DNA of 64,000 nt from an uncultured Methanosarcinales archaeon (GCA_964572035.1 CAZNDX010000001.1:60437-124436), one strand, 5' to 3'. Shown: positions 8,162 to 53,349, numbered from the stretch's first letter. Translations and numbers: made by a program. The notes: generated by a model not told the origin, from the letters alone.

Positions 8162-10945
8162 GTGAGAATGGCAAATAAAGCAATTACATTGACTCCTCTG
8201 ATTTTTATTCTAGTGGTGTTAACGTTCGTTAATGTTCAGGGAGCGGAATTAAGTCAAGAAAAAATTTTCCAGTTTGACCATGCGCCCACCCAACAAGATT
8301 ACGACAATCTCTTAATTCGAGGATGCACGGTAACATATGAACCGAGACACTTAAACCTTCTAATCGCGACATGCACTGAACAAGAAGGCGCGATGACGAT
8401 GCAGCAAACACCGCAGATCGGACAAGTTTGGGAAAATGAAATGTTCTCATCGACATTAAGCGACGGCGCCCAAATAATAGAGGCAATTCAGGCATGGAAT
8501 TCAAGTTATAACGGAAGCGGAATTACAATAGGGATAATGGATACAGGCATTAACACAAGCCACTCCGCGCTGGCAGGACAATTTGACGGCGAAATTGACT
8601 TTTACGATGGAGGAACAGCAGAAGACCTGTGCAACCACGGAACGCCCGTCGCAGGAATACTCGCTTCACTAAACGAAACATATAGGGGAATAGCGCACGG
8701 GGCGAGATTTTATAATTTGAAAACGGGACAAATAGTTACCGGCTCTTGCGGCCACTCCAGTTCGGACATAATAGAAGCAATTGACTACTCAGTTGAAAAT
8801 GGAATAGATATCATTTCAATGTCAATAGGAGGAGCAGTTAGCAACTGCGACCTTTCAATAACTGCGCTTTACGTTAATGAAACAGTATATCAAGATGGAA
8901 TTCCGATAGTAATAGGTGCAGGAAACGGAGGATCAAGCAACAACAGCATATGGTCTCCGGGCTGCGCGCAAAACGCAATAACTGTGGGCTCAGTGAACAA
9001 AGACAGGACTTTGTCAAGTTTTTCAAGCAGAGGACCCGTCAACAATTACAACAAGCCGGATGTTTTGGCTCCCGGAAACAGCATAGCCAGTACGCATCTT
9101 GACGGAACATTCGCGGGAGGATTTAGCGGCACAAGCATGGCAACTCCTTTCGCCGCAGGAGTTGTCGCATTAATTCTTCAGGCAAACCCCGAACTTAACT
9201 GGACACAAATAAAAGAAATTCTCGCCAACAGCTCAACAGATTTGGGATACGCAGAAAATGAACAAGGGGCAGGACTTGTCAACGCCAGCAGGGCAGTTGA
9301 GATCGCTCTAACCGTAAACACGACAAAACCTCCAAAAACAACAGCAACAATCACAAAAACAGACAACACAAACCCGCTCAACATATCAAATTCAACGATA
9401 TTGAAATATCAAATAAATTTCACAATCCAAAACGGAACAGCGTACAACACGATAATTGAGGAAAATTACCCGGCAAATATAATATTCATTTCCTCGACTC
9501 CAATCCCAACGACCGGCGAAAATATCTGGGCAGCAGGCAATCTAACATCGGGACAAACATACCAAATAAACATAACTGTGAATGTAAGCCAAAACCTTCA
9601 AAATGGAACAATCCTCACAAACAAAGTCAACGCGACGTTCACGAATTCCACAAACGGACTGGAAACAAAAGAATACATTAAAAACACGACAATAACAAGG
9701 GACCAAACATTCGAGGATTACCCCGGAATATTGATTCTCGCGCAAAACACAAACGGGCCAACATATTATGACATTTACGACAATCAAACATTCGGCGCGC
9801 CTCAAAATTTTGAAACAAACGGAACACCCGCATGGATATTATCTGAATCAACCGAAACCAGAAACGAAACCGCAATAGCCATACAAAACAGCGACAACGC
9901 GATACACTTCTACATCCACACGCCTCAAACGAACGTAACTGACCCAATTTTATTGACGCAAGACTCGGGAGGCTCTCAAAGAAGATTTGACCTTGAGTAC
10001 GACAAAAACGGAAACGCGCTCATAGTTTTCGCAACAGGGAACAGCACGCCATCATACAAAATATGGGACGGAAACCAATTCATATCAAGCGGAAGCCTCC
10101 CTCAAGACGCATGCACAAGCAACACGGCATGGGTGCAAACCGCGGCATCCCCTGTTGATGAAACAGTGATAGCGATATACTCCGACACAAGCGGAAGATA
10201 TTGCGCCCAAGTTTGGAACGGAAGCCAGTGGGGACAAAGCAAACATTTCGACACCGATGCCGGCACCGCAACAGAAAAATTCAGCCTAGAATTTGAAGAA
10301 ACAAGCGGACACGCGCTCGCAGTATTTGAAAGCCCAACACAAGGAATCGTGAGCTACTGCGAATGGACTGGAATTTGGTGTTCTTCAAACACAGACCTGT
10401 CGGACAGAGGAAGCCAAAACGACTGGGTAAGACTTTCTTCCGAACCAACAAGCGACAGAATAATTCTTGGAACATATCAGAGCGGAAACGCAGATATTGA
10501 TGTAGTTGAATGGAACGGAAGCAGATTTGGAACATGGAAAACAATAGATCCAAGCGTTGAAACAGGAGGCGACAGAATATTTGACGTAAGCTACATAGGA
10601 AACACAGGAAAGGCAATGATAGTTTACACTGACAGCAACCAAAAAGTCCCATCGTTCTCAACATGCGAAAATTCCAACACCTGTTTTGGCGGCACATGGA
10701 GCTCCAACAGCTTAACAACAAGCAGCGGAAATAACTGCGGAGAAAACTCCGATTTGGATTTCGTAAAACTAACTCAAAAACCAAACACAAACCAAATTTT
10801 GCTGACCGGATTAAGCCAAACCCAGCACTATAAGTGCGCCCAAGCCTACAACGGAACAACATGGCAAACATGGACTAGCAATCTCGGAAGCGGAAGCGCA
10901 GATCTTGCGGCGGAAGACATTAGCGCGACATTTGACGCCGACTAA
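8162..10945 (+). CDS. secreted subtilisin-like serine protease (S8) with a long N-glycosylation-sequon-rich C-terminal extension
   Basis: Signal peptide, then the catalytic triad motifs IMDTGI (Asp), CNHGTPVAGI (His), GTSMATPFAAG (Ser). The C-terminal 550 aa are packed with N-x-S/T sequons. Confidence 0.85.
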   Translation: MRMANKAITLTPLIFILVVLTFVNVQGAELSQEKIFQFDHAPTQQDYDNLLIRGCTVTYEPRHLNLLIATCTEQEGAMTMQQTPQIGQVWENEMFSSTLSDGAQIIEAIQAWNSSYNGSGITIGIMDTGINTSHSALAGQFDGEIDFYDGGTAEDLCNHGTPVAGILASLNETYRGIAHGARFYNLKTGQIVTGSCGHSSSDIIEAIDYSVENGIDIISMSIGGAVSNCDLSITALYVNETVYQDGIPIVIGAGNGGSSNNSIWSPGCAQNAITVGSVNKDRTLSSFSSRGPVNNYNKPDVLAPGNSIASTHLDGTFAGGFSGTSMATPFAAGVVALILQANPELNWTQIKEILANSSTDLGYAENEQGAGLVNASRAVEIALTVNTTKPPKTTATITKTDNTNPLNISNSTILKYQINFTIQNGTAYNTIIEENYPANIIFISSTPIPTTGENIWAAGNLTSGQTYQINITVNVSQNLQNGTILTNKVNATFTNSTNGLETKEYIKNTTITRDQTFEDYPGILILAQNTNGPTYYDIYDNQTFGAPQNFETNGTPAWILSESTETRNETAIAIQNSDNAIHFYIHTPQTNVTDPILLTQDSGGSQRRFDLEYDKNGNALIVFATGNSTPSYKIWDGNQFISSGSLPQDACTSNTAWVQTAASPVDETVIAIYSDTSGRYCAQVWNGSQWGQSKHFDTDAGTATEKFSLEFEETSGHALAVFESPTQGIVSYCEWTGIWCSSNTDLSDRGSQNDWVRLSSEPTSDRIILGTYQSGNADIDVVEWNGSRFGTWKTIDPSVETGGDRIFDVSYIGNTGKAMIVYTDSNQKVPSFSTCENSNTCFGGTWSSNSLTTSSGNNCGENSDLDFVKLTQKPNTNQILLTGLSQTQHYKCAQAYNGTTWQTWTSNLGSGSADLAAEDISATFDAD

Positions 10946-11097: not shown

Positions 11098-11475
11098 TTG
11101 AAGCCAGACCAACACTTCGCGCCAATAACCATTTTCAACGGAAAACTAAGCCCTGGCGAGGCGCTCGTAAAACACTTACGGGAACACCACAACCTGCGGT
11201 TCACAGACATCGCTAAACTGCTAAACAGAGACCAAAGAGGAATCTGGTGCGCGTACAAGGCATCGCAAAAAAAAGAGCCAGAACACATTCCTTTTGACCC
11301 GCACCACATATTGTTCCCTGTGAACATGTTTTCTGACCGAAACTTCAGCATACTGGAACACATCGTGATTCATCTGCGGGAAAAATACACCGTAAAAGAA
11401 ATAGCGGAACTTCTAAACAAACACCCAAGCACAATAAGCACTATTCAGACGAGAGCAAGGAGGAAACAGCCTTGA
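11098..11475 (+). CDS. DNA-binding protein with two tandem HTH_10 / sigma-70 region-4-like helix-turn-helix repeats
   Basis: TTG start with AGAGG SD 7 nt upstream. Repeat 1 is LSPGEALVKHLREHHNLRFTDIAKLLNRDQRGIWCAYKAS and repeat 2 is FSILEHIVIHLREKYTVKEIAELLNKHPSTISTIQTRARRK. Its stop overlaps the TTG start of the giant surface protein gene. Confidence 0.55.
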   Translation: MKPDQHFAPITIFNGKLSPGEALVKHLREHHNLRFTDIAKLLNRDQRGIWCAYKASQKKEPEHIPFDPHHILFPVNMFSDRNFSILEHIVIHLREKYTVKEIAELLNKHPSTISTIQTRARRKQP

Positions 11476-14400
11476 GAATTCTGCCAATTTTACTGATATT
11501 GGCACTCGCTACGGCCACAGCAGGAGTTGACATATCAGAAATACTTGGCAAAAAATTGGAAGTAAAAAATGAAGAAAACAAAAATGAGAAACTAATTTCA
11601 GATACATTGTCAAAATTCACAGAACGATTAAAGGATAAAAACGAAATATCCCTAATTGACAAAACCGGAAAAGCGCAAATAAAACAAACATCCAGAAATT
11701 GGACGATCAACGCAACAATTGAAAATCACCCGATCAGAAAAATACAACTCAACAACGTAAGAGGAAAAAACAACACTCTAAAGATAGACACCCCAATAAT
11801 AAAAGACTCAAGACAGTCATACGCGATAGACCCCACGGAAATCAACTTCACCAACGGAGAAATAGAAGTAATCGCGAAAGGGGAGCACCTTTTCAAATGC
11901 CCCGGATGGAACTACACGACGGCAATCTGCGAAGAAACCTGCAAATTGAACAATGACCAAGAAGAAGTATGCCTTGAATGGTTTTACCAAAAAGAAATCA
12001 CTCCCGGACAACCATACACAATAGAGATAGCCCCAAATGACCCCGCGTTTTATGAAACATCCGCATCATCTGACGTGTCCGCAAGCCCCTATAACAGCAC
12101 AACAATACTAATCGCGTTCACCGATGTAACCCAAACCGACGTGGGATTTAAAATAATGGACACAAACGGGACTGAAATAGTAAATACAACACTTGTTGAC
12201 ACAACGGTTGACACAAGATCAAGAGTTGACTCAGCATGGATAAACTCAACACACTTCGTAATATTCTGGGCGGACACGCTTGAAAACGACGGAACATTTC
12301 AAATATGGAACTTCAACGGAACCCACGCGACAAGCGCGACAACTCCAATAGACGCAGACACAAGCATGGGAGGAATAAATGTTGACGTATCAATAGCCAT
12401 GCTAAACGACAGATTCGTAACCTGCTACGCGAACGACGGAGACTCTGACGCCGATTTCAGGGCTTTCGACTTTTTGGGAACACAAGTAGTTGGAGAAACC
12501 GCTGTTGACGGAAACATACTTCCAAGCGCACCCCTCCAAAACCAAATCGACTGCTCAGCGACGAGCAACAACAGATGGACTTATTTCACTTATGACGACG
12601 CTACTGTCAACGACGCGACATATTACATTCAAAGCGAAACAGGCGCAAGCATAGTAGGGGCAGTCGATATAGACACGGACGTCGGAGAGGAAGGACAAGT
12701 GACAGTCATAGGACTTAACGAAAACTTGTCAGGACTTGTTTGGTATGATTCAACAGACCAAGACATAACAATCGCGGGAGTCAACAACTCAGGAACAACA
12801 ATATTCGGACCAACCGACGCAGACACGGAAGCCGGGACTTCAAGCAGAGTCGCGGCGACAGGACTCAGGCAAGACAAAACATCAACCGACCAACTCTTCG
12901 CGTTCGCCTGGTACGACTCAGCAGACACCACAATAAAAGCGGCCGTTTATAGGACAAACGGGACACAATTCACCGCGCCATTCAACGTAACAACAACTCC
13001 AAACAGCACATATCAAATCATAGACATAACCGGAAGAGATAGCATAACAGGACAAGAAATATGCCCCGGCACGTTCATCGTCGCGTTCAGCAACTCAACT
13101 GGAAGAGGGGAATTCCTTGGCTTCTGGGCGAACAGTACACCATGGAACGGAACGTGCGTTGAAAACGAGCCACCCTCAATAAAAAACGCAACAGTTGTTC
13201 CTTCAATAGTGAACATAGGAAACAACGTGTGTTTCATTTTGAACGTTACAGACGCGGACGGTATAACGAACGTCACGGCAATCATAGACCCCCCACTTGG
13301 AGCCAACCAAACTCTGACTTTGAACGAAGGGTTATCATGCAACAGCATCCCAGGGGATAATTTATGGACAAACATTTACTTCCCAATAATTGACGCGACA
13401 CACATTTGGGGAACTGTAAACATAACAGACGGATTAGGGGTAACAACAACTCACGCGATTAATGTTAGTTTCGATGTATTACTCCCTTCGATATCAATTG
13501 AGGGAATTTACCCTCCAACTTTCGCAGCGTATAACGACGGAACAAACTTCAACGTCAGCCTGATTAATGTCTCGGATAACGTTTATACGACACAAACAAT
13601 ACCCGCAAATGTAAACACTCGAACATTCTTCAACTGGACACAGTTCAACTTAACCGACAAACAAATAAAAAACGCAGTTATTATAGTTGAGCATTCATAC
13701 TCGAACTCAACCAATCTCAACATAAGCCTTGACCAATTCAACGGAAGCGAATGGATCAGCAGATGCACACTCAGCGCAAGCCAAACTGACACAACCCACT
13801 TTTGCAACATAACCGTATTTGTAAATTCAACAACATTAAACAATCTTCAACTGAGATTGAACGCGAGCGCGACTTCAAATAGAACACAAAATGTGGACTA
13901 TATTGTTCTCAACCTAACCACAAACACGCCGCCAACAATCAACCACGACATAAACCAAACATACCTTTTGAACCAAACGGCGCTTCTAAGACTCAACGTC
14001 ACAGACCTCGAAAATGACACAATAATCAGAGTGAACGCCACAGTCACATCTCCAAGTGGAGCAACACTATTTTACAACTTCACAAACACAAACGGAACAT
14101 TATGGGACGCGACGCATGCCGACATGAAACTAAAAGGAATCTACAACATAACCATAAGGGCAACAGACAACCAAGGCAGCACAAGAGTAATTCAAACATT
14201 CTTCACAAGAAGAGCGTTTAACGTTGTCGACATAATAGAGCCAAAAGAAGAAGGAGTCCCAACGCTTCAGAATTTCAGCTTCCACAATTACACCGCCCAG
14301 ATAATCTCAAACCAATCAAACATACTTGCCCTATCCATAAACCTCACGGGAGCAGAAGTTAAACAAATTAACATAACTGGATACAACGAAAGCTCCCCAT

Positions 14401-16655
14401 ACAGCATAATTGAACTTAAAGACGATGAAGAAAACACGCCAAAAACAGTATCATTCACAGGATATCAAATAAACCCTGAAGGCCTTGACTTCACGAACGC
14501 GACACTTCTCCTGAACGCGAGCGGAAACCACTCATTATGGAAATGCGCGAACTACAACTTCACGGAAGAAAAATGCTTTGAAGGAAACTGGATAGAACAC
14601 CGAAACATAACAAAAGGCCAACTTTACACCGTAAATATAAACGCAACGGACCCCGCTTTTATCGAAACAACGGCGGCAGGAGACGTCGCAATGGACCCAC
14701 TAAACAACACAATATTCCTAATAGGATTTGTTGACATAGCTCAAACAGAGGTCTCATTTGAAATACTAAACACGAACGGAACAATAATCATTAATACAAC
14801 AGACGTGGACACAACAGTAACAACAAACGCAAGAGTTGACGTCAACTGGATAAACAGCAGCCACTTCGTAATATTCTGGGCAGACACAAACGATAACGAC
14901 GCGACATTCCAAATATTTAGCTTCAACGGAACAGCAACAACAAGCGTCGCAGGACCAATAGATGTCGACACATCAATGGGAAGCGCAAATGTTGACGTAT
15001 CACTCGCAATGCTAGACAACAGATTCGTAACGTGCTACGCGAACGACGCAGACTCTGACGCGGACTTTCAAGCATACAATTTCGCCGGAACACAAGTGGT
15101 TGTTGAAACCGCAGTGGATGGAAATATACAACCAAGCTCGCCGCTTCAAAATCTAATAGACTGCTCGGCAACAAACAACACCAGATGGACATATTTCACA
15201 TTTGATGACTCGACAGTCAACGACGCGACATACTACATTCTCGACAACACAGGAGGAACAATAGTGGGCGCGACAGACATAGACACAGACGTAGGAGAAA
15301 CAGGACAAGTAGCAGTAATTGGACTTAACAACAACCTTTCAGGGCTGGTATGGTATGACAGCACGGACCAAGACATATCAATCGCAGGAGTCAACAATTC
15401 AGGAACAACCACCTTCGGACCAACAGACGTCGACACAGGAGCCGGAACAGAAAGCAGAGTAGCAGGAGCAGCAGTCCGACAAAACAAAACATCAACCGAC
15501 CAACTATTCGCGTTCGCCTGGTGGTCACAAAGTAACGGAACGGTAAAGGCGTCAATTTACAGAACAAACGGAACGCAGTTCACGGCGCCGTTCAACGTAA
15601 GCGCATCGATAAACTCAACATTCCCAATAATAGACATAACCGGAAGGGACAACATAACAGGACAAGAAATATGCCCCGGCGCATTTTTAGTCGCTTTCAG
15701 TAACGGATCAACCGGCCAATTTGTCGGATACTGGGTGAACGGAACACCATGGAATGGAACATGCCCTATTGATTTAATAGCAACTCAACTAAACGCGAGC
15801 GACTTAAACCCTGATGAACTGGAAAACGTAACATTCAACGGAAGCATTTTCAACAACGGAACAAGCACCGCGTTTAATTTTATCTCAGCTATCGTGGATG
15901 GAAACTGCACTACTGGAACAATGATACAAAACAGAACAGTCAATCTCTCGGCGGGACAAAACACAACCCTAAACTTCAGCTGGAGCGCGACACCAGTGGG
16001 ACCGCACAACATAAGCTTTTGCGTCAACTACATAAACAATGTTCTGGAGGACAATTACACCAACAACAACATAACAATAACAATAAACGTCAAAGCGTAC
16101 AACGATTACTTCGGCAATATAACAGGAAATCTGACTCTTGACACAAACACAAACAACACTGAATACGACTGGAGATTCAATGACTCAGGAAACATCATCT
16201 TCACAAACTCACAAGTAACTGTGAACTTCACCGCGCTATACGCACTAGGAAGAAACACAACAGGCGGAATAGCGGTTAACGATTTTCTTGAAGCCGACCA
16301 AGCGCTGAACATGACAGGATTCAACGACAGCATACAAACACTATGGTCGACAAACGCAAGCCAGCCAAGACAAACAACAAACTTCACGGTGCGCGGAAGA
16401 ACAATAGAAAATGTGCCGTACATCAACAGCACAAACACAAGCAACTTCATAACAGGCATTTTGTGGCAATCTGTAAACAGCACAAGCAGAGAATTCAACG
16501 CGACGCAAAAGCAACCATTGCTGTTTGTAACAATGATAAACCGCAACCAAACAGGATTCTACGGAAGATATGATTATGAGGCGCACGTACCTGTGCTTCT
16601 GCGCTCCTATAATAGTACGTCCAACGCTTTGCAATATTTTGTTGAACTGAAATAA
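11472..16655 (+). CDS. giant secreted surface glycoprotein candidate (1727 aa) with a large internal duplication
   Basis: TTG start preceded by AGGAGG. Sec signal MRILPILLILALATATAG. There are more than 150 N-x-S/T sequons and acidic DxDxD motifs. Two modules of about 400 aa are roughly 75% identical. Confidence 0.8.
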   Translation: MRILPILLILALATATAGVDISEILGKKLEVKNEENKNEKLISDTLSKFTERLKDKNEISLIDKTGKAQIKQTSRNWTINATIENHPIRKIQLNNVRGKNNTLKIDTPIIKDSRQSYAIDPTEINFTNGEIEVIAKGEHLFKCPGWNYTTAICEETCKLNNDQEEVCLEWFYQKEITPGQPYTIEIAPNDPAFYETSASSDVSASPYNSTTILIAFTDVTQTDVGFKIMDTNGTEIVNTTLVDTTVDTRSRVDSAWINSTHFVIFWADTLENDGTFQIWNFNGTHATSATTPIDADTSMGGINVDVSIAMLNDRFVTCYANDGDSDADFRAFDFLGTQVVGETAVDGNILPSAPLQNQIDCSATSNNRWTYFTYDDATVNDATYYIQSETGASIVGAVDIDTDVGEEGQVTVIGLNENLSGLVWYDSTDQDITIAGVNNSGTTIFGPTDADTEAGTSSRVAATGLRQDKTSTDQLFAFAWYDSADTTIKAAVYRTNGTQFTAPFNVTTTPNSTYQIIDITGRDSITGQEICPGTFIVAFSNSTGRGEFLGFWANSTPWNGTCVENEPPSIKNATVVPSIVNIGNNVCFILNVTDADGITNVTAIIDPPLGANQTLTLNEGLSCNSIPGDNLWTNIYFPIIDATHIWGTVNITDGLGVTTTHAINVSFDVLLPSISIEGIYPPTFAAYNDGTNFNVSLINVSDNVYTTQTIPANVNTRTFFNWTQFNLTDKQIKNAVIIVEHSYSNSTNLNISLDQFNGSEWISRCTLSASQTDTTHFCNITVFVNSTTLNNLQLRLNASATSNRTQNVDYIVLNLTTNTPPTINHDINQTYLLNQTALLRLNVTDLENDTIIRVNATVTSPSGATLFYNFTNTNGTLWDATHADMKLKGIYNITIRATDNQGSTRVIQTFFTRRAFNVVDIIEPKEEGVPTLQNFSFHNYTAQIISNQSNILALSINLTGAEVKQINITGYNESSPYSIIELKDDEENTPKTVSFTGYQINPEGLDFTNATLLLNASGNHSLWKCANYNFTEEKCFEGNWIEHRNITKGQLYTVNINATDPAFIETTAAGDVAMDPLNNTIFLIGFVDIAQTEVSFEILNTNGTIIINTTDVDTTVTTNARVDVNWINSSHFVIFWADTNDNDATFQIFSFNGTATTSVAGPIDVDTSMGSANVDVSLAMLDNRFVTCYANDADSDADFQAYNFAGTQVVVETAVDGNIQPSSPLQNLIDCSATNNTRWTYFTFDDSTVNDATYYILDNTGGTIVGATDIDTDVGETGQVAVIGLNNNLSGLVWYDSTDQDISIAGVNNSGTTTFGPTDVDTGAGTESRVAGAAVRQNKTSTDQLFAFAWWSQSNGTVKASIYRTNGTQFTAPFNVSASINSTFPIIDITGRDNITGQEICPGAFLVAFSNGSTGQFVGYWVNGTPWNGTCPIDLIATQLNASDLNPDELENVTFNGSIFNNGTSTAFNFISAIVDGNCTTGTMIQNRTVNLSAGQNTTLNFSWSATPVGPHNISFCVNYINNVLEDNYTNNNITITINVKAYNDYFGNITGNLTLDTNTNNTEYDWRFNDSGNIIFTNSQVTVNFTALYALGRNTTGGIAVNDFLEADQALNMTGFNDSIQTLWSTNASQPRQTTNFTVRGRTIENVPYINSTNTSNFITGILWQSVNSTSREFNATQKQPLLFVTMINRNQTGFYGRYDYEAHVPVLLRSYNSTSNALQYFVELK
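11893..13157 (+). repeat. intragenic direct repeat, copy 1 (about 1.26 kb)
   Basis: Protein FKCPGWNYT...TPWNGTC. It shares identical nucleotide runs of at least 20 nt (e.g. cacttcgtaatattctgggc) with copy 2. Confidence 0.7.
14538..15764 (+). repeat. intragenic direct repeat, copy 2 (about 1.23 kb)
   Basis: Protein WKCANYNFT...TPWNGTC. About 75% aa identity to copy 1, offset about 2.6 kb. Confidence 0.7.
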
Positions 16656-16716: not shown

Positions 16717-16746
16717 ATATTTATCGATGCATGTATCGATAAATAT
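16717..16746. promoter_or_regulatory. inverted repeat ATATTTATCGAT-gcatgt-ATCGATAAATAT (12-bp arms) upstream of the winged-helix regulator gene
   Basis: Perfect arms read from the sequence. It shares a TGCATG core with the second palindrome. Confidence 0.5.
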
Positions 16747-16769: not shown

Positions 16770-16783
16770 CCTTGCATGCAAGG
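16770..16783. promoter_or_regulatory. 14-bp perfect palindrome CCTTGCATGCAAGG centred on the regulator start codon
   Basis: Read from the sequence. The ATG of ORF 16776 is the palindrome centre. Confidence 0.5.
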
Positions 16784-17246
16784 GGATCGCGTTCGAGAGA
16801 TAGTACTGAGTATAATCTCTAATTCTCAAACCCCGCTCGAAACCCCAGAAATCCTCGAACGCGTTCTTCAACAAACCAAGACGACAAGAACAATCGTCTT
16901 CAAACGCCTCACAGATTTGCGAGGCGACGGCGAGATATTCGGAGCGCACATCGGTTCCGGAAAAGGAACGTGGATTTGGTGGAACAAAGAACTGCACAAA
17001 GACGAGCAGAAAGCACCAACTTCCGACGACAAAATCGCCTCAAAAGTTCTCGAGACAATCTTCACTTCTCAAACTCCTCTAGAAACTAAGCAAATTGAGA
17101 AAATCGTGCAGGACGCGATCCCAACAACCCGCACGATAATTTTCAAACGCTTGACAGACTTGCGCGGCGACGGCAAAGTCAGAGGAAAACACGTCGGTTC
17201 CGGAAAGGGCGCCTGGATATGGTGGAGGGAAAATGCGACTAGATAA
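16776..17246 (+). CDS. tandem winged-helix DNA-binding protein (two ~70-aa repeats)
   Basis: Repeats SQTPLET.EI...TTRTI(V/I)FKRLTDLRGDG...G.H(I/V)GSGKG(T/A)WIWW occur twice. It lies just upstream of the paralogous secreted-protein genes and overlaps the first by 14 nt. Confidence 0.6.
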   Translation: MQGDRVREIVLSIISNSQTPLETPEILERVLQQTKTTRTIVFKRLTDLRGDGEIFGAHIGSGKGTWIWWNKELHKDEQKAPTSDDKIASKVLETIFTSQTPLETKQIEKIVQDAIPTTRTIIFKRLTDLRGDGKVRGKHVGSGKGAWIWWRENATR

Positions 17247-17916
17247 AAGTCTAGGCAAAGCGCTGATCGCAATCGCAATGGCCCTCATTATGGTAGCTGC
17301 AGCCTTCGCCCAGCCAGTAGGAGCGGGCGTGCAAACCGGAACACCAGTAACCAAGTCATTCATCAGCTCCGGAACAATAGGAGCGCAGGGAGGAAACGCG
17401 ACAACACTCAGCGCAACAACAGAAACGCAAACATTGTCCTGGCAGGGCTTCTACGGAGAAGTATCGGCCAATATGAGCCTGGAGAATTCAAACGGCAGCG
17501 TACTATACAGCTGGACCAACGCGACAAACGGAACAATATATCTCAGCAGAAAGGCAGCTGTCAACTTCGCCAACATAACAGCAGTAAACGTATGTACCGT
17601 CGATGAAAGCATCACAGGAACTGGCAGCGCAAGAGTAAACAACACATTCAGGTCAAGCAACAACACCGAGCTAATAGTTGGAGGAACAGTGATTCCACCT
17701 GGAACAGCGTGCGCGATGAACTCATACGTCAATAACGCAAGCCAGAGTAGCGCGTTCGAAGAAATCATCCTGACAGATGACGGAGTAACAACCATATACG
17801 CGACGCAGATAGAGGAGAACGCTCCAGGATTCGACGGACAGCCACACGACTGGCAGGCGCTAGTGCCATCCAACCTAACAACACTAACGTACTACGTATA
17901 CGTCGAATTCGAATAA
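17233..17916 (+). CDS. Sec-secreted protein, paralog family member A
   Basis: Signal peptide ending AFA-QP. Conserved AQGGNxT...WQGFYG core shared with 18010 and 20358. Sequon-rich. Confidence 0.65.
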   Translation: MRLDKSLGKALIAIAMALIMVAAAFAQPVGAGVQTGTPVTKSFISSGTIGAQGGNATTLSATTETQTLSWQGFYGEVSANMSLENSNGSVLYSWTNATNGTIYLSRKAAVNFANITAVNVCTVDESITGTGSARVNNTFRSSNNTELIVGGTVIPPGTACAMNSYVNNASQSSAFEEIILTDDGVTTIYATQIEENAPGFDGQPHDWQALVPSNLTTLTYYVYVEFE

Positions 17917-18009
17917 GCAAAACGAAATATTTAAATATCAGTATAGTCATATAAAAGGTCACCAGTATACGAAAACATATACTATAGTTGAGGGAAAAGA
18001 GGGATTTCA

Positions 18010-18690
18010 ATGAGAATAAAGACGCTAATTATCGGCATATTGATTTTAGCAGCAATGACAGTAATGGCTTACGCGCAACCACTCGGAGCGAGCACGCAAG
18101 TAGGAACCCCCCAAACAATCACGTCCGGGACTCCTGGCAACGCCACCGCGCAAGGTGGGAACATAACACTAGTCAACCTGACAGGGAGAGGAAGAGTAAA
18201 CGCCTGGCAAGGTTTCTACGGACAAGTAAGCGGAAACTTCTCACTTGAGGATACTACAGGGGACGTCCTTTACGCTTGGGATATCACAAACCACACAGGC
18301 GAAGTGTTCGCAAGCAGATTCTCAACAATCGATTTCACAACAGTCGCAGGAGTAACAACTTGCACAGTAGATGAAGATTTAACAGGGAACGGAAGAGAAC
18401 GAACAAACAGAACGTTCACAAACGCAACTGTAAACTTCACAATAGGAACCGTGAGCATAACTGAGGCGTGCAGAACATACACATACGTAAGCAACGCGAC
18501 TTCCACAAACTGGGAAGAAATAATCATCAACGCAACAGGCGTAACCAGCATTTACGTCGTCAAAATTAACGAATCCACACCAGTGTTTGACGGAACATCC
18601 CAGGACTACCAAATGATTGTGCCTGATAACAGAACGGCCGCGACAACAGTTTACTACTTTTACGCGGAATTTGACTCGACGAGCGAGTAA
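18010..18690 (+). CDS. Sec-secreted protein, paralog family member B
   Basis: Signal peptide ending AYA-QP. AQGGNITLVNLTG...AWQGFYGQVSG aligns with members A and C. Confidence 0.65.
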   Translation: MRIKTLIIGILILAAMTVMAYAQPLGASTQVGTPQTITSGTPGNATAQGGNITLVNLTGRGRVNAWQGFYGQVSGNFSLEDTTGDVLYAWDITNHTGEVFASRFSTIDFTTVAGVTTCTVDEDLTGNGRERTNRTFTNATVNFTIGTVSITEACRTYTYVSNATSTNWEEIIINATGVTSIYVVKINESTPVFDGTSQDYQMIVPDNRTAATTVYYFYAEFDSTSE

Positions 18691-18729
18691 ACAGATACCT
18701 TTTTAATATTCTTTTTTATTTGAATTTTT

Positions 18730-20394
18730 ATGAAAAAGGGATTTTTGCTAATATTTCTCATATTCGCGACAGCGGTCAGCGCTCAAGAAGTATACGTCGC
18801 CAACACAGCATCCTGGGAAAACATTTACAGCGCAGGAATATACAGCGCGCTATTAGGAAAAGAATTCTACTACCTCGTAAACGCGAGACATGCGGAAGCA
18901 TTGACAGCAGAACTGCCAAGAGGAGCAGACGTAACAGTAATCGAATCTGACAGAATCCCCTACGTAAAAAAATACGCAAACCGCTTAACAAACGCCGGAA
19001 TGAAATCACAAACAGTACTAGTTCCCGAGGATGACGCAAATCTTGACCTCGCAAAAAGACTCCCTCAAATAAACAGCTATTATCTAGTAAACCCAGTATT
19101 CGGATATGACGCGATAAGCGCCGCACCCCTCGCGATACAAACAAAATCATATGTGCTATTCGCCACAAAGGAAAACGCCAAAGAACTAGCCGAATTCCTC
19201 AGCAGCAAAACATTGTCAGGACTGACCATAGTTGGAGACGCAGACCAAGAAGTCATCAGCGCAGTCTCCCATCTAAACCCAAAAATAACCAACGAAGGAA
19301 ACAGATTCAAAAACAACATAGCCCTCGCCGAACAATACAGACAAGCAACAAACGCGCAACAAGCAATACTAACAAACGGAGAATTCCTAGAATACGACAT
19401 ATTCACAGCACAAAACCAGCCAATAGTATTCATAGGAAGAGACAGAGTCCCAGAACAATCACTCGAATACCTAAGGTCAGCACCATACAAAACATTCGTA
19501 GTCCTAGGGAAAGACCTCCTAGGAAGCAGCCAGTCAATAAAAACCTCAACACAAAAACCAGTATTCCTCAAATTCGCCAAAGGAACAACAGGACCAAACG
19601 GATTCCAAAACGTAAGAGGACTCGACCTATTCCCAACACCAGTATTCGAAATGCTCCTCTCATTCAAAACAATATACTACAACATCGACCAGCAGAAAGT
19701 AGAAATGGCAGTTCAAAACGAAAAGCCAGCAAGAACATACCTAGAAGCAAACATACTCCTCCAAGAAGGAGACACTCCAATCATAACACTAGGAGGAGAC
19801 GGATTCAGAATAGAAGGAAATACACAGCACACGTTCAGCTACGCCCAAGACTTAAGCGCCTACGCAACAAAAAACGTAACAGCGCAAGTAACAATACCAT
19901 ACGGCGAAAGCGAAGACACAATAGAAAGAGTTCTAACAGCAACACAACAACTAATATTCTTCTCAGAAAAAGACCTATGCAAACTAAGCATAAACGACGC
20001 AGAATACGACGACACAACACAGCGCTTCAAAATAACAGTCAAGTCGGACAAAGAATGCTACGCGCAAGCGACAATGCTAAACCTGACCATTAGCGATGAA
20101 ATCACCAACCCACAAAGCGGAACGGTAAGAATCGATGGAAAAACAACCATTGACGTCAAACAAAGAATGGACGAAGTTGACATCGCCGACAACCCAACAA
20201 TCACTGTAAGCGTCCGCTACGGAAGCGAGCCAAACGCGCTCATCAAAGAAATAACAAAAACAATGCCATTCAAGAGGACAAGCAGCATTAGCATGACGCT
20301 AATAATCGGAATCGCCGCAATAGCCGCAGTCGTATTACTAATAATTTTCATAATACTATGGAAACGAAAAAAACAACGGCGCTACTCGTACTGA
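18730..20394 (+). CDS. cell-envelope protein with putative cell-wall-binding (CW_binding_2-like) repeats and a C-terminal TM anchor plus basic tail
   Basis: Signal peptide. Segments such as DAISAAPLAIQTKSYVLFATKENAKEL resemble CW_binding_2 repeats. C-terminus LIIGIAAIAAVVLLIIFIILWKRKKQRR. Confidence 0.55.
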   Translation: MKKGFLLIFLIFATAVSAQEVYVANTASWENIYSAGIYSALLGKEFYYLVNARHAEALTAELPRGADVTVIESDRIPYVKKYANRLTNAGMKSQTVLVPEDDANLDLAKRLPQINSYYLVNPVFGYDAISAAPLAIQTKSYVLFATKENAKELAEFLSSKTLSGLTIVGDADQEVISAVSHLNPKITNEGNRFKNNIALAEQYRQATNAQQAILTNGEFLEYDIFTAQNQPIVFIGRDRVPEQSLEYLRSAPYKTFVVLGKDLLGSSQSIKTSTQKPVFLKFAKGTTGPNGFQNVRGLDLFPTPVFEMLLSFKTIYYNIDQQKVEMAVQNEKPARTYLEANILLQEGDTPIITLGGDGFRIEGNTQHTFSYAQDLSAYATKNVTAQVTIPYGESEDTIERVLTATQQLIFFSEKDLCKLSINDAEYDDTTQRFKITVKSDKECYAQATMLNLTISDEITNPQSGTVRIDGKTTIDVKQRMDEVDIADNPTITVSVRYGSEPNALIKEITKTMPFKRTSSISMTLIIGIAAIAAVVLLIIFIILWKRKKQRRYSY

Positions 20395-21887
20395 TATTTC
20401 TCGCAGGAATAGCGTTCGCGCAAGTTCCAGGGAGCGCTCCCGCTCAAGGAGGCAACATAACAATGGTGAACCTGAGCGTTTTCAATGAAACTCAGCGCTG
20501 GCAAGGATGGGTAGGAACAGTATTTTTCACAGGACCACTCACGCCACCAAGCGTTCCAGCAATAGGCGGAGAAATAAACTTCACACAAATAAACGTAACA
20601 AGCCCCTGCACCAGCCCAACAGCAGTAAGCGGATTCATACTGTTCAGCAACTCAAGCACAGCGCCAACAGGACTTGTCGCCGGAAATTTAACAATCCTTG
20701 ACCAATTCACAGGAGGAGGACCTGACAAGGGAAGCAGCACATTCACAGTCAACACAACATTCACAATCGGCGCGCCAATCACAAACGTACCAACAGCATA
20801 CCCGTACGTCAACAACGGAAGCCAAAGCACAGTATTCAGAGAAGGCTACCTGAACGACGCAGGAGGAAACATAGTTTTCGCGGTAGAAGTAAACCTGAAC
20901 ACCCAAGGATACAACAGCAGCTTCTTTGACTTCCAAGCGCTTCTCCCAGCAAGAAACAAAACAGCCGCAACTTGGTATTTGACAACAGACCTGCAAATAA
21001 CATGCCCGCCAGTCACCCCTCCATCTGGCGGAGGAGGCGGAAGACCATACTACCCACTATGCACTCCGTCGTGGAACTGCACAGGATGGGGGCCATGCCA
21101 AGACGGACTAATGCTAAGAAACTGCACATCTAACTTCTGCGGAAGAGCAATAGCAAGACCGCCAACAGCAAAAACCTGCGAAGCGATAATTTCACCTGAA
21201 ATGCAAGAACCGGAACTCATCGACAAACTGCACGGGACACAAATACTCGTTCAAGCGCCACAAGAGATAGAAATAGTCGCTGGGCAACTCACTCAAGTAT
21301 TAATCACCATACACAACCCAAATGACTACAGCATAGAAGACCTCAGCGCGACAATATCAACACCGTTCGTCACGCAAACATACACGCCACTCCAAACAAA
21401 ACCAAAGCTCTACCAACTTTTCGGAGTAATACCCAAAATAAAAAACATAGAAGAACACGCGATACGCTCAAGAACAACACCTACCCTAATGCTTCCAAAA
21501 GAAACCATAACACTCCCAGCATACCTTATAGGCCCTCCAATCATTCCGCAAAGAATATCAGCAACCCTCACGATAAAAAGCGGAGACATAACAATATTCA
21601 CACAACCAATAATTATAATAACAGAAGTCAACTCGCTAACACTAATGACTAACAAACAAGGAAGCACTATAACAGCATACATCATTCTAGATAACAGAGA
21701 ACAAAAAAGACAAAAAAAGTCTCTCGAACTGGATTTAAACCAAGGACGCACAACAAAACACGCAGACCTATTTGACATCACAATTGAACAAAACAAAGTC
21801 GCGACATACGCGCAAACATACAGAACAACATTCGATTACGACGCCGTTCGAGCGAGAACAGACAACGCAGTAATAGAGGTACGCTAA
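20358..21887 (+). CDS. Sec-secreted protein, paralog family member C with a Cys-rich linker and long C-terminal domain
   Basis: Signal ending AFA-QV. AQGGNITMVNLS...WQGWVG core. Linker PPSGGGGGRPYYPLCTPSWNCTGWGPCQDG...C..NFC. Overlaps the previous gene by 37 nt. Confidence 0.65.
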   Translation: METKKTTALLVLIFLAGIAFAQVPGSAPAQGGNITMVNLSVFNETQRWQGWVGTVFFTGPLTPPSVPAIGGEINFTQINVTSPCTSPTAVSGFILFSNSSTAPTGLVAGNLTILDQFTGGGPDKGSSTFTVNTTFTIGAPITNVPTAYPYVNNGSQSTVFREGYLNDAGGNIVFAVEVNLNTQGYNSSFFDFQALLPARNKTAATWYLTTDLQITCPPVTPPSGGGGGRPYYPLCTPSWNCTGWGPCQDGLMLRNCTSNFCGRAIARPPTAKTCEAIISPEMQEPELIDKLHGTQILVQAPQEIEIVAGQLTQVLITIHNPNDYSIEDLSATISTPFVTQTYTPLQTKPKLYQLFGVIPKIKNIEEHAIRSRTTPTLMLPKETITLPAYLIGPPIIPQRISATLTIKSGDITIFTQPIIIITEVNSLTLMTNKQGSTITAYIILDNREQKRQKKSLELDLNQGRTTKHADLFDITIEQNKVATYAQTYRTTFDYDAVRARTDNAVIEVR

Positions 21888-22009
21888 TGTACGTATTCGG
21901 AATAGACATACCAATAACACTGATTTTTCTATTCATTCTAGCCACGCAAATAATCATCATTATAGAGCTACTAATTTTAAGGAGGAAACATGATCGTCGC
22001 AGGAATTAA
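21887..22009 (+). CDS. hydrophobic micro-protein (40 aa) MYVFGIDIPITLIFLFILATQIIIIIELLILRRKHDRRRN
   Basis: ATG overlaps the TAA of the upstream gene (TAATG). Single TM helix plus basic tail. Too short for the ORF track. Paralogous to the next micro-ORF. Confidence 0.35.
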   Translation: MYVFGIDIPITLIFLFILATQIIIIIELLILRRKHDRRRN

Positions 22010-22088
22010 CCTCCCAATAACTGAAGCGATAATAATTCTGCAAACAGGCATCGCGCTATACTTTCTTTGGAAGATACTAAAGAATTAG
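21990..22088 (+). CDS. hydrophobic micro-protein (32 aa) MIVAGINLPITEAIIILQTGIALYFLWKILKN
   Basis: GGAGG 6 nt upstream of the ATG. N-terminus (M-x-V-x-GI-D/N-I/L-PIT) matches the preceding micro-ORF. Confidence 0.35.
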   Translation: MIVAGINLPITEAIIILQTGIALYFLWKILKN

Positions 22089-51435: not shown

Positions 51436-53349
51436 TTAGGGCAATATACTCAAAATAGCGCCAACAATCCTCTTATACCACGGGACGCCATCAACAACCA
51501 TTCGAGCTTTAGCCTCAGACTCATAAGTCACACCCTTCTCATCCTCAAACTCCGCCAAAATAGTAAAAACAGGATTTGAAGAATAAAGCTGGGACGCCTC
51601 GACAACAACTGTGACATCCTGATCAATCAACAAATCGCCCATCGCCAAATTAGAAACCGCGCCAGCGCCAGAAACTCTGACCTTCACATTCCTCGGAACA
51701 GCAACACTTTGACGCTTCACCATAAAATTAATCTCAAAAACATCACCGGCTGAAACTTTCTGAGGCAAAATAACATCAGAAATCTCAACACTAGGGGAAT
51801 CAAGACGAATCAAAGACAACTGAGCCTTTGCGACATCAGAACCAAGCGTGGCGACAACCTCAACAGGATGAACGCCAGCTGACTTGGCAGGAACATTAAA
51901 CGAAACCTTAGACGCGCCTCTAGCTTCAAGAGTGACATCAACACAATTGGCTGAGCAAACCCTCGCGACACCACTCGGGCCATACGATTTCAAGACACAA
52001 TCAACAAAACCGACATCAGAAGAAATCATATCCTCCCTCAAAACGCAAGCCAACTCTATCGGATTAGGCTTTCTAACAGACGCCTGCTCAATCGCGGCAT
52101 CAACAACATTTTCCGACAAAGGAGACTCAAACTGACCAACACCAAAAGAAGTTGAAACGGTATCATTTCTAATCGTTGAAACAACAATCGGAACAGAATA
52201 CTGCATATTCTTGTTTATGTCATCCTTTATTTTTACTTTCCAACCGACGGCAGCTCTTGACTTCGGAGGCAAAATAACCTGCCTCGCAAAACCCTTTGAA
52301 ACCTCAAGCTCCTGAACAGGCGACAAAGTAAATTCCTTCGCCACATAATAATCGGCAAAATTCTCAAGCTCAAGAACAACCCCGTTATAGCTGCCGAAAC
52401 TCACGCGGTCGCGAACAACCTTCAAATTCATAGAAACATCATTGGGAACAGAACCTTCACTTGACAACTTATTCGCCTTAATAGTCAACGGATTCGTCTT
52501 AACACGACCGCCAAGCCATTCAACAGAAGTCGTCGGCTCACTAGGATCAAAACTTTCTTTCAACTTGATATGGCCTGGGTCAACCCAAGCGAACTCGCCA
52601 AAAGTAGGATCAAAAGGAACCCAGCCAACTCCCGGGAAATAAACCTCCGCCCAGCCGTGAGCGCCCCACGCGCCTGGGAAAGCGGGATTATCAGTATAAG
52701 CAACACCAGAAACAAACTTCGCGGGAATACCCAAAGAACGAACCATGGCTATAAACAAGCTCGTCATCTCATCACAAACACCATAACGATTCTCCAAAAC
52801 CCACGAAGCGGGCTGAGAAACATCCGCGGTCAGCGTACTAAGATTATAATCAACGTTAGTCTTAACCCACATCGCCAACTTAGACACAACAACAAACAAA
52901 TCATCCTCGCCATCCGCCAACGCCCTCGCCTGAGCGACTATAGCCGGATGGTTTGAATCAATATTCTTAGTCGGCTGCTGAAACTGCTTGAAAACATCAA
53001 TCCCAACAGGAAAAGGAATCTTCGCTCGAACACGAGGAGCGTCATTAGCAACGTCAACAACCGCGCGATAAGAATAAGACAAAGTCGGACCCTGAGGCCT
53101 TGACCAACCATAACGAACCCTATCGGATGAAATTACCGCAGGAGGATTCGCCTTGATTTCCCTAATCGCGGAAAACTCGCTGTTCTGAGGAACAAACATA
53201 ACATCAACAGCCAAATTCTTAACGTCACCATCCAAGTTCAACGAAGAAGAAACCTCGAGCTCAGTTTTGACAAGACCGGCTGAAAACCAATCAGTACTCG
53301 CGGCGAAAGCAAACGGGAGAATCAACAAAAATAAAAGAAGCCTCTTCAT
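51436..53349 (-). CDS. secreted transglutaminase-like (cysteine protease fold) protein
   Basis: Signal peptide. Core GVCDEMTSLFIAMVRS (Cys), HGWAEVYFPGVGWVPFDPT (His, Asp). Confidence 0.75.
   Translation of the reverse strand: MKRLLLFLLILPFAFAASTDWFSAGLVKTELEVSSSLNLDGDVKNLAVDVMFVPQNSEFSAIREIKANPPAVISSDRVRYGWSRPQGPTLSYSYRAVVDVANDAPRVRAKIPFPVGIDVFKQFQQPTKNIDSNHPAIVAQARALADGEDDLFVVVSKLAMWVKTNVDYNLSTLTADVSQPASWVLENRYGVCDEMTSLFIAMVRSLGIPAKFVSGVAYTDNPAFPGAWGAHGWAEVYFPGVGWVPFDPTFGEFAWVDPGHIKLKESFDPSEPTTSVEWLGGRVKTNPLTIKANKLSSEGSVPNDVSMNLKVVRDRVSFGSYNGVVLELENFADYYVAKEFTLSPVQELEVSKGFARQVILPPKSRAAVGWKVKIKDDINKNMQYSVPIVVSTIRNDTVSTSFGVGQFESPLSENVVDAAIEQASVRKPNPIELACVLREDMISSDVGFVDCVLKSYGPSGVARVCSANCVDVTLEARGASKVSFNVPAKSAGVHPVEVVATLGSDVAKAQLSLIRLDSPSVEISDVILPQKVSAGDVFEINFMVKRQSVAVPRNVKVRVSGAGAVSNLAMGDLLIDQDVTVVVEASQLYSSNPVFTILAEFEDEKGVTYESEAKARMVVDGVPWYKRIVGAILSILP

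Follow-up and report, generated by a model that had tools for sequence, protein, structure and literature searches.

DPANN archaea live attached to other cells, and to our knowledge almost nothing is known of the proteins that make or decorate their surfaces. A 64,000-nt stretch of DNA deposited under the name of an uncultured Methanosarcinales archaeon (GCA_964572035.1, CAZNDX010000001.1:60437-124436), hereafter the window, with coordinates counted from its first letter, poses this question at a single locus: what do three neighboring genes for secreted proteins, described in an earlier reading of the sequence (the original prediction) as tandem paralogs of an unnamed family, contribute to the cell surface? 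We label the proteins p1, p2, and p3, the domain that they share A, and a membrane protein encoded among them B. A is an undescribed extracellular domain of ~200 amino acids (aa), beta-rich and, by prediction, heavily N-glycosylated, and we infer, with a probability of roughly 40%, that A domains join to one another to form a surface structure rooted in p3 and B. The main functional clues at the locus are the intervening B gene and a fourth A domain, which ends a giant protein encoded just upstream:

11472-16655, + strand: giant open reading frame (ORF), a secreted, sequon-rich surface protein of 1727 aa with a divergent A domain at its end (ORF, CARDB, and profile match)
16053-16652, + strand: the fourth A domain, of the divergent A' type, giant residues ~1528-1727, ending ...LQYFVELK at the C-terminus (hmmsearch, hhalign, blastp)
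17233-17916, + strand: p1, a stand-alone A-domain protein of 227 aa (ORF, blastp, AlphaFold model)
18010-18690, + strand: p2, a second stand-alone A-domain protein of 226 aa and an old paralog of p1 (ORF, blastp)
18730-20394, + strand: B, a type-I membrane protein of 554 aa, conserved partner of A genes (Pfam CWB2, transmembrane (TM) helix, profile)
20358-21887, + strand: p3, a C-type protein of 509 aa with an A domain, a Cys module, and an all-beta extension

Using blastp with composition-based statistics, p1 and p2 aligned at 45% identity over 234 aa (E 5e-56), while p3 aligned with p1 at 29% (E 1e-14) and with p2 at 34% (E 6e-17). The similarity of the three is therefore homology and not shared composition, the doubt that the original prediction had itself raised. 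The alignment spans the full length of the short proteins, with 47% (p2) and 31% (p3) identity to p1, and all database names in the family are 'hypothetical protein', so that the claim of three paralogs of an unnamed family holds. The tandem arrangement proposed for them is correct as to position and strand, but the array is interrupted by the B gene, which separates p2 from p3 and shares 37 nt with the latter, and the fourth A copy upstream had been missed. A hidden Markov model built from the three sequences detected no further A copies over the window; the copy in the giant ORF was detected only by a 68-sequence profile with filters off and by hhalign.

The three signal peptides have a basic n-region and a hydrophobic core, followed by AFA-Q (p1 and p3) or AYA-Q (p2), and the motifs AQGGN(A/I)T and WQG(F/W)(Y/V)G are common to p1-p3; both the signal peptide ends and the N-terminal core had been recognized correctly. 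In p1, the signal peptide is followed by a conserved N-terminal tail of ~24 aa, the GGNAT...WQGFYG segment, a beta core, and a C-terminal YYVYVEFE. Neither a twin-arginine motif in the signal peptides nor a class III cleavage motif before the hydrophobic core was found in p1-p3, and K/R-G before the core was not found in p2 or p3. A type IV pilin-like identity was rejected, as A-x-A lies after the hydrophobic core and conservation resumes right after it (P 89% at +2, G 85% at +4), which bears out the earlier assignment to Sec and signal peptidase I (SPase I) instead of class III processing. The sequon-rich character noted at the outset was also confirmed, with 44, 53, and 26 sequons per 1000 aa in p1, p2, and p3, compared to 0-13 for the cytoplasmic genes of the window. 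On these signals, p1-p3 are predicted to be Sec-exported, SPase-I-cleaved, and N-glycosylated.

No Pfam or NCBIfam family was found for p1 or p3 at E <= 1, p2 gave only chance-level matches to unrelated families (E 0.08-0.15), and no family recurred when 68 relatives were scanned singly. The family profile likewise found nothing meaningful among all PDB sequences. Without a Pfam, NCBIfam, or PDB-sequence match, the family maps to no well-known domain, as had been supposed. A surface-layer (S-layer) domain identity (MSTP/DUF1608-like or annotated S-layer protein, SLP) was rejected, since none occurs among the Pfam/NCBIfam matches of p1-p3, and the chance matches of p2 do not recur in the 68 relatives. 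In the literature that we searched, we found no description of this domain or module, including under CWB2/cell-wall-binding proteins in archaea or DPANN. The AlphaFold2 model of p1, made with 68 homologs, has a mean predicted local distance difference test score (pLDDT) of 86.6 and a predicted template modeling score (pTM) of 0.79; its all-beta core (residues 70-226) is mostly above pLDDT 90, and residues 28-69 are coil. A structure search of the PDB with this model returned no neighbor and nothing like the subunits of threads, TasA/AbpA, or CanA.

Conserved in A are G-G-(N 72%)-(I/V)-(T 84%), W (98%)-Q-G-F/Y-Y-G (99%), and a C-terminal strand Y (97%)-Y-F-Y-x-E (94%)-[LIFV], which is followed by 0-1 residue and then, in the stand-alone forms and those at the end of larger 'cargo-A' proteins, by the end of the protein. 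Of 462 family members, 340 (74%) have a functional sequon at the GGN-x-T site. The stand-alone proteins share a tail of ~20 residues directly after A-x-A (P 89%-x-G 85%-A-[TS]-[VIL]-[TS]-x-G-T-P-x-T); it is missing from p3-type proteins in each of the three lineages. Measured from the signal-peptide core, the GG motif lies a median of 32 residues away in 192 stand-alone proteins and 11 away in 49 p3-type ones. The p1 model leaves both the tail and GGNAT as coil, and in the p3 model GGNIT scores below pLDDT 50.

The original prediction had proposed a search of archaeal and DPANN bins, and DPANN relatives were indeed found. A word-indexed search returned 96, all 'hypothetical', from Woesearchaeota, Micrarchaeota/Anstonellaceae, and Ainarchaeum metagenome-assembled genomes (MAGs). 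An exhaustive HMMER scan of 1.84 billion cluster representatives yielded 1,686 proteins at E <= 1e-3, counted as clusters at 50% identity, and 583 at E <= 1e-30. When one genome per GTDB species was scanned with an 11-sequence alignment as query, 79 loci were obtained from Woese-, Nano-, and Micrarchaeota and from the cultured methanogen Methanogenium cariaci JCM 10550, whose A proteins (RefSeq 'hypothetical protein') were found in two independent assemblies. The presence of the module in this free-living organism argues against a symbiosis-specific role. The link that the original prediction drew from tandem expansion to host interaction is unsupported. Relative loci found in genome and contig comparisons carry labels of the type L001-L089; in two of them (L067 and L073), A-domain genes lie on contigs labeled Omnitrophota and Saccharibacteria (bacterial MAGs), and ~17 loci are labeled 'uncultured Methanosarcinales' in third-party assemblies. 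These three labels are likely misbinning or placeholder names, with lateral transfer as a less likely alternative.

The architectures of 471 unique relatives fall into few kinds. Most (359, ~76%) are stand-alone, with a signal peptide and A, and their genes often form arrays of 2-7 copies. At least 56 carry A followed by an extension, like p3, and 31 are cargo-A proteins of 320-2359 aa in which A ends at the last residue. Nine more scored as 'internal', nearly all being p3-type proteins in which the match covered only part of the domain, and 15 were fragments or divergent. None of the 471 has A between two large protein parts, and A stands at the extreme C-terminus of all 25 long proteins among the best 150 of the exhaustive search. 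The cargo domains include right-handed beta-helix/NosD, laminin-G, and bacterial immunoglobulin (Ig) domains, and most cargo-A proteins retain the tail region between cargo and A domain.

Some cargo-A proteins also match an autopeptidase domain. With a best score of 31 bits (cutoff 28.4), six of 10 long ones match the Nup98-type autopeptidase S59 (PF04096), namely P0169, P0132, P0159, P0160, P0171, and P0200 (600-800 aa). An S59 motif lies ~115-140 residues before the A domain in P0169 (NVQHFSAYSA), P0132 (QVNHFSNYSA), and P0176 (TVQSFSAYSA), the last of which carries it without a Pfam match. This suggests that S59-type cargo-A proteins may be self-cleaving surface proteins that leave an A-bearing stub on the cell.

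The giant ORF of the window belongs to the cargo-bearing kind. It has a signal peptide, a CARDB domain (E 4e-7), and 101 sequons (58 per 1000 aa), and its hydrophobic segment is N-terminal only. A long internal duplication gives two similar blocks that both combine a head containing Cys with a repeated '...NDPAF(Y/I)ET...' region, and the syntenic orthologs differ greatly in size, from 2220 aa in L088 to at least 5577 aa in L007. Its C-terminal A domain was matched by the 68-sequence profile (hmmsearch --max, E 2e-15) and by blastp against A proteins (E 1e-4 to 2e-3), and five giant-type C-termini aligned with the family profile in hhalign with a probability of 98.9% (E 2.9e-17, 164 columns). 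This divergent A domain lacks the tail seen in the stand-alone forms.

The A domain of p3 (residues ~22-215, nt 20421-21002) also starts without the N-terminal tail. It is followed by a G/P linker, a module of six conserved Cys (residues 235-274, nt 21060-21179; C-x5-C-x5-C-x8-C...C...C), and an all-beta end of the Ig-like sandwich type (residues ~297-509, nt 21246-21884), modeled as probably two sandwich domains. The Cys-rich linker CTPSWNCTGWGPCQDG of the original prediction is thus present in p3, while the extension described there as 300 aa measures ~275 aa. The p3 model has a pLDDT of 83, with low confidence in the G/P linker and values above 90 in the all-beta region from ~297, and in a fold search its C-terminal extension matched only generic Ig-like, fibronectin type III (FN3), or macroglobulin-type sandwiches, which give no functional clue. 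No TM segment was found in the p3 of the window; its p3-type counterparts in Micrarchaeota and Ainarchaeum-like MAGs have a C-terminal TM helix and basic tail.

B consists of a signal peptide, a CWB2-like region (residues ~20-300, nt 18787-19629), a beta-rich region, a single TM helix (residues 524-542, nt 20299-20355), and a basic tail, and it carries only 4 sequons per 1000 aa. When 25 B proteins were combined in a profile, it matched Clostridioides difficile Cwp6 (5j72_A residues 133-325, E 2.7e-12) in an alignment (profile positions 95-270) that begins at the end of repeat one and reaches into repeat three. Pfam CWB2 (PF04122) was matched by 7 of the 25 (best E 8e-9), whereas the B of the window stayed below threshold (E 5e-4, 21 bits against a cutoff of 24.9) and matched in its second repeat only. 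One B homolog is named 'cell wall-binding repeat-containing protein' at NCBI. By Pfam, 6 of the 25 have a cytoplasmic zinc ribbon (C-x2-C...C-x2-C) after the TM helix, with zinc-ribbon B genes coming from L013, L015, L021, L037, and L054, and this hints at a possible intracellular partner or signaling role for B.

The genes for A and B keep close company. At least two A genes are present in 67 of the 79 species loci, with adjacent copies in 50, and B lies within 7 kb of A in 35 of the 79, many loci being incomplete. Among 47 B genes, 44 share the strand of A, and 30 have an A gene no more than 150 bp away. The order in the window and in other Woesearchaeota (L007, L010-L012, L014, L088) is giant-A', winged helix-turn-helix gene, A, A, B, p3-type; in Micrarchaeota, it is B, A, B', p3-type with TM; and in Methanogenium cariaci, A (WP_062396813), B (WP_062396811), a large protein with an A' end, p3-type (WP_218185083). 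As the set of A, B, and p3-type genes occurs in Woese-/Nanoarchaeota, Micrarchaeota, and Methanogenium cariaci, the module is older than these lineages. In another Woese-/Nanoarchaeota lineage, a conserved secreted protein of 303-309 aa with no Pfam match is encoded between the A array and B (L013 8475-9383, L015 4778-5686, L021 8480-9406, L054 10256-11179); no p3-type gene was seen after B in these four loci, and the window has no counterpart of the 303-309-aa gene.

Rates of evolution were estimated from pairwise Nei-Gojobori ratios of non-synonymous to synonymous substitutions (dN/dS) between the window and its syntenic relative L088:

p1: dN/dS 0.29, 79% aa identity
p2: dN/dS 0.11, 83% aa identity
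p3: dN/dS 0.17, 86% aa identity
giant: dN/dS 0.33, 52% aa identity
B: dN/dS 0.10, 92% aa identity
flanking housekeeping genes: dN/dS 0.04-0.13

All compared genes are under purifying selection overall. For p1-p3, these gene-wide values (0.11-0.29) contain no signal of the positive selection that the original prediction had suggested looking for. p1 and the giant evolve ~3 times faster than B, and p1 ~3 times faster than the housekeeping genes, rates that fit an exposed variable shell on a constrained base. Both p1 and p2 are closer to their positional counterparts in L007 than to the other copy (the ortholog of p2 there is the second copy, at 52% vs 40% identity), so the split between them predates the divergence from this 45-52%-identical relative, and no recent expansion took place here. 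Other lineages do show recent duplications, such as two L014 copies with 80% identity.

The reading that we favor would join these elements as follows. A proteins would be exported by Sec, cleaved by SPase I, and glycosylated, and their A domains would then bind each other to form a fiber or patch on the cell surface. The stand-alone p1 and p2 would be the bulk subunits, and cargo-A proteins such as the giant would be attached by the A domain at their C-terminus, with their N-terminal parts on display. At the cell-proximal end would stand p3, its A domain carried on an Ig-like beta-sandwich stalk, while B, membrane-anchored and of CWB2 type, would tether the assembly to the membrane. Most family members carry no cargo and occur in several copies, as would be expected of bulk subunits more than of docking tags, and where other lineages place A at the far end of a membrane-anchored stalk, binding of A to A is the simplest explanation. 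In its most specific form, the assembly could possibly proceed by donor-strand exchange, the ~20-residue tail of the stand-alone and most cargo-A forms inserting into a neighboring A domain. The idea comes from the tail itself, which starts at the mature N-terminus, is missing in the p3 class, and lies outside the sheet in monomer models; p3-type proteins, having no tail, would accept a strand and not donate one.

Several points weigh against this self-assembly. It is a proposal made from sequences and monomer models, and since the p1 model is unlike thread, TasA/AbpA, or CanA subunits or any PDB entry, the donor strand enters by analogy alone. Most cargo-A proteins keep the tail between cargo and domain, unlike chaperone-usher tip adhesins. 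The p3 of the window has no TM segment, so its own anchoring at the base is inferred. The CWB2 module binds a cell-wall glycopolymer (PMC8881574), and no such polymer is known in these archaea. Finally, plain docking of A on B would explain the tight A-B linkage equally well.

Such docking is the strongest of the alternatives, though we consider it unlikely. A would then be a surface-anchoring module that binds the distal CWB2-like head of B and so retains cargo-A proteins, with no A-A polymer, and stand-alone A proteins would occupy, regulate, or cap free B sites (compare dockerin-cohesin and CWB2/SLH). The close, same-strand linkage of A and B, the constraint on B, which is like that of housekeeping genes, and the relation of its ectodomain to a known anchoring module all agree with this, as does the position of A at the extreme C-terminus of large secreted proteins without another anchor, the giant of the window included. 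That B is nearly sequon-free and A sequon-rich would suit a glycan-reading receptor, but with GGN-x-T a sequon in only 74% of members, an obligatory glycan ligand there is unlikely and recognition by B of a glycan at this site is weakened as a candidate. It is also hard to justify a docking tag of which ~76% are cargo-less, often in arrays of 2-7 copies, and where, as in other lineages, a membrane-anchored stalk carries A at its distal end, the arrangement is sensible only if A binds a partner other than B.

Two further explanations were considered. In an improbable one, the locus would encode an S-layer-like coat, or a patch of one, in which CWB2 triads of B tile a membrane-proximal sheet (compare SLP-H) and A forms a variable outer layer (compare SLP-L). 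In C. difficile, CWB2 triads do form a lattice that carries a variable outer subunit (PMC8881574); the A proteins evolve faster than B and are repeatedly duplicated, and cargo-A proteins would be the counterparts of those Cwp paralogs that become part of the C. difficile S-layer by co-assembly. Lattice formation is nevertheless a supposition by analogy, and Pfam detects just the second CWB2 repeat in the B of the window, while the Cwp6 match starts at the end of the first and reaches into the third. What further lowers this coat is that published work assigns S-layers in Micrarchaeota and Nanoarchaeota to different proteins, namely a 101-kDa SLP of Ca. Micrarchaeum harzensis (10.1101/2021.04.28.441871) and MSTP-like beta-sandwich proteins (10.1101/2024.05.28.596244). 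Less probable still is that p1, p2, and p3 are independent secreted adhesins or lectins for host or environmental surfaces, their linkage to B reflecting incidental co-regulation. They are secreted, predicted to be glycosylated, and multi-copy, they occur in genomes of presumed symbionts, and p1 outpaces the housekeeping genes as described; but the module is present in a free-living methanogen, the gene set and order of the A+B+C type are conserved across phyla, conservation is strongest at the termini and in one core motif and not in a binding pocket, and dN/dS is well below 1.

The remaining features of the cluster concern its regulation and small neighbors:

16717-16746, no strand: palindrome of 30 bp, ATATTTATCGATGCA / TGTATCGATAAATAT, a candidate operator (repeat search)
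16776-17246, + strand: 156-aa cytoplasmic protein with two winged-helix-like repeats of ~75 aa, a candidate cluster regulator (ORF)
21887-22088, + strand: two tiny hydrophobic ORFs of 40 aa (21887-22009) and 32 aa (21990-22088), possible small membrane peptides

The palindrome, which has an ATCGAT core and 15-nt arms that are 93% complementary, overlaps an A/T-rich, TATA-like stretch that precedes the cluster's first gene. A similar palindrome with this core stands at the same place in L088, and L007 has a weaker counterpart. The 156-aa gene overlaps the start of p1 by 14 nt, and its product has orthologs at the same position in L007 (60% identity) and in L088, where the protein is longer (235 aa); a family scan gave nothing beyond weak Mnd1-HTH and DUF7613 matches. 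Together, palindrome and protein look like a putative autoregulated operator. An element upstream of p2, AAATATTTAAA, recurs upstream of the 156-aa gene. The first tiny ORF overlaps the p3 stop codon (TAATG), and the pair is called as genes at the same place in L001, L002, L088, and L089.

Just upstream of the cluster, at 8162-10945, is the gene of a secreted subtilase of 927 aa (Peptidase_S8, mycosin-like match E 5e-38; 31 sequons per 1000 aa), which could be a processor of surface proteins. A second secreted enzyme, encoded farther away at 51436-53349 on the - strand, has 637 aa, a signal peptide, and a transglutaminase-core domain (E 1e-25) and could cross-link such proteins. With the giant sequon-rich CARDB protein, the CWB2-type membrane protein, and the secreted subtilase nearby, the predicted gene content is that of an envelope locus, in keeping with the original prediction.

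A is the common domain and shared handle of stand-alone, giant adhesin-like, and stalked proteins. If it self-assembles or docks on B, it defines how many archaeal surface proteins, including some of several thousand residues, stay on the cell. Going further, the module of A, B, and p3-type proteins might be an unrecognized surface organelle spanning phyla, either a fifth, independently evolved class of chaperone-free donor-strand glycoprotein fiber or a sheet, with a new fold, giant adhesin tips, and a CWB2-derived membrane root; we hold this only tentatively and regard it as rather doubtful. If true, it would provide a candidate attachment apparatus for DPANN symbionts, with a cultured methanogen as a tractable model. 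As the full module is present in Methanogenium cariaci, the question can be addressed experimentally now.

Among known systems, the threads of Sulfolobus acidocaldarius (Saci_0406, arCOG10215) are a close precedent of kind for an A assembly. Their ~200-aa subunits are Sec/SPase-I-exported and N-glycosylated and have a conserved N-terminal donor strand, and a paralog, Saci_0405, encoded next door, is proposed to play a terminal role (PMC9715654). With A they share the Sec signal and SPase I cleavage, a beta-rich mature protein of ~200 aa, heavy N-glycosylation (predicted for A), conserved sequence right after the cleavage site, and a paralogous neighbor. They differ in having no CWB2-type partner, cargo fusions, or stalked variant, in being found in Crenarchaeota, as opposed to DPANN and Methanomicrobiales for the A family, and in that their filament has been seen, whereas the A family is known here from genes alone. 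Homology between the two was ruled out by the fold searches, the p1 model being unlike Saci_0406. TasA/AbpA bundling pili, CanA cannulae, and the tafi/bundling pili that depend on twin-arginine translocation (Tat) are further donor-strand filaments that need no chaperone. They are built from small, secreted subunits of the beta-sandwich type that have an N-terminal strand, paralogs often being encoded at one locus, and they show that fibers of this sort evolved in archaea several independent times. A differs from them in giving no Peptidase_M73/TasA-type Pfam match and no structural match, and its signals are Sec and not Tat.

For B, the nearest likeness is to the SlpA high-molecular-weight subunit, Cwp6, and Cwp8 of C. 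difficile, a likeness that does not concern p1-p3. There, the CWB2 module anchors and tiles beneath a variable outer protein (SlpA, PMC8881574). B, unlike the C. difficile CWB2 proteins, is held by its own C-terminal TM helix, to which some lineages add a cytoplasmic zinc ribbon. We know of no PSII, the polymer bound by CWB2, in archaea. The C-terminal domain of the type IX secretion system, dockerin, and the S-layer homology (SLH) domain resemble A as conserved domains at the very C-terminus of unrelated large secreted proteins. A, by comparison, is ~200 aa long, has no homology to them, is mostly stand-alone in arrays, and also occurs N-terminally on a stalk, and it is not linked to sortase-like or secretion machinery. 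By homology, then, A belongs to no known family; by kind, it resembles the known surface-building and anchoring systems of archaea and Gram-positive bacteria.

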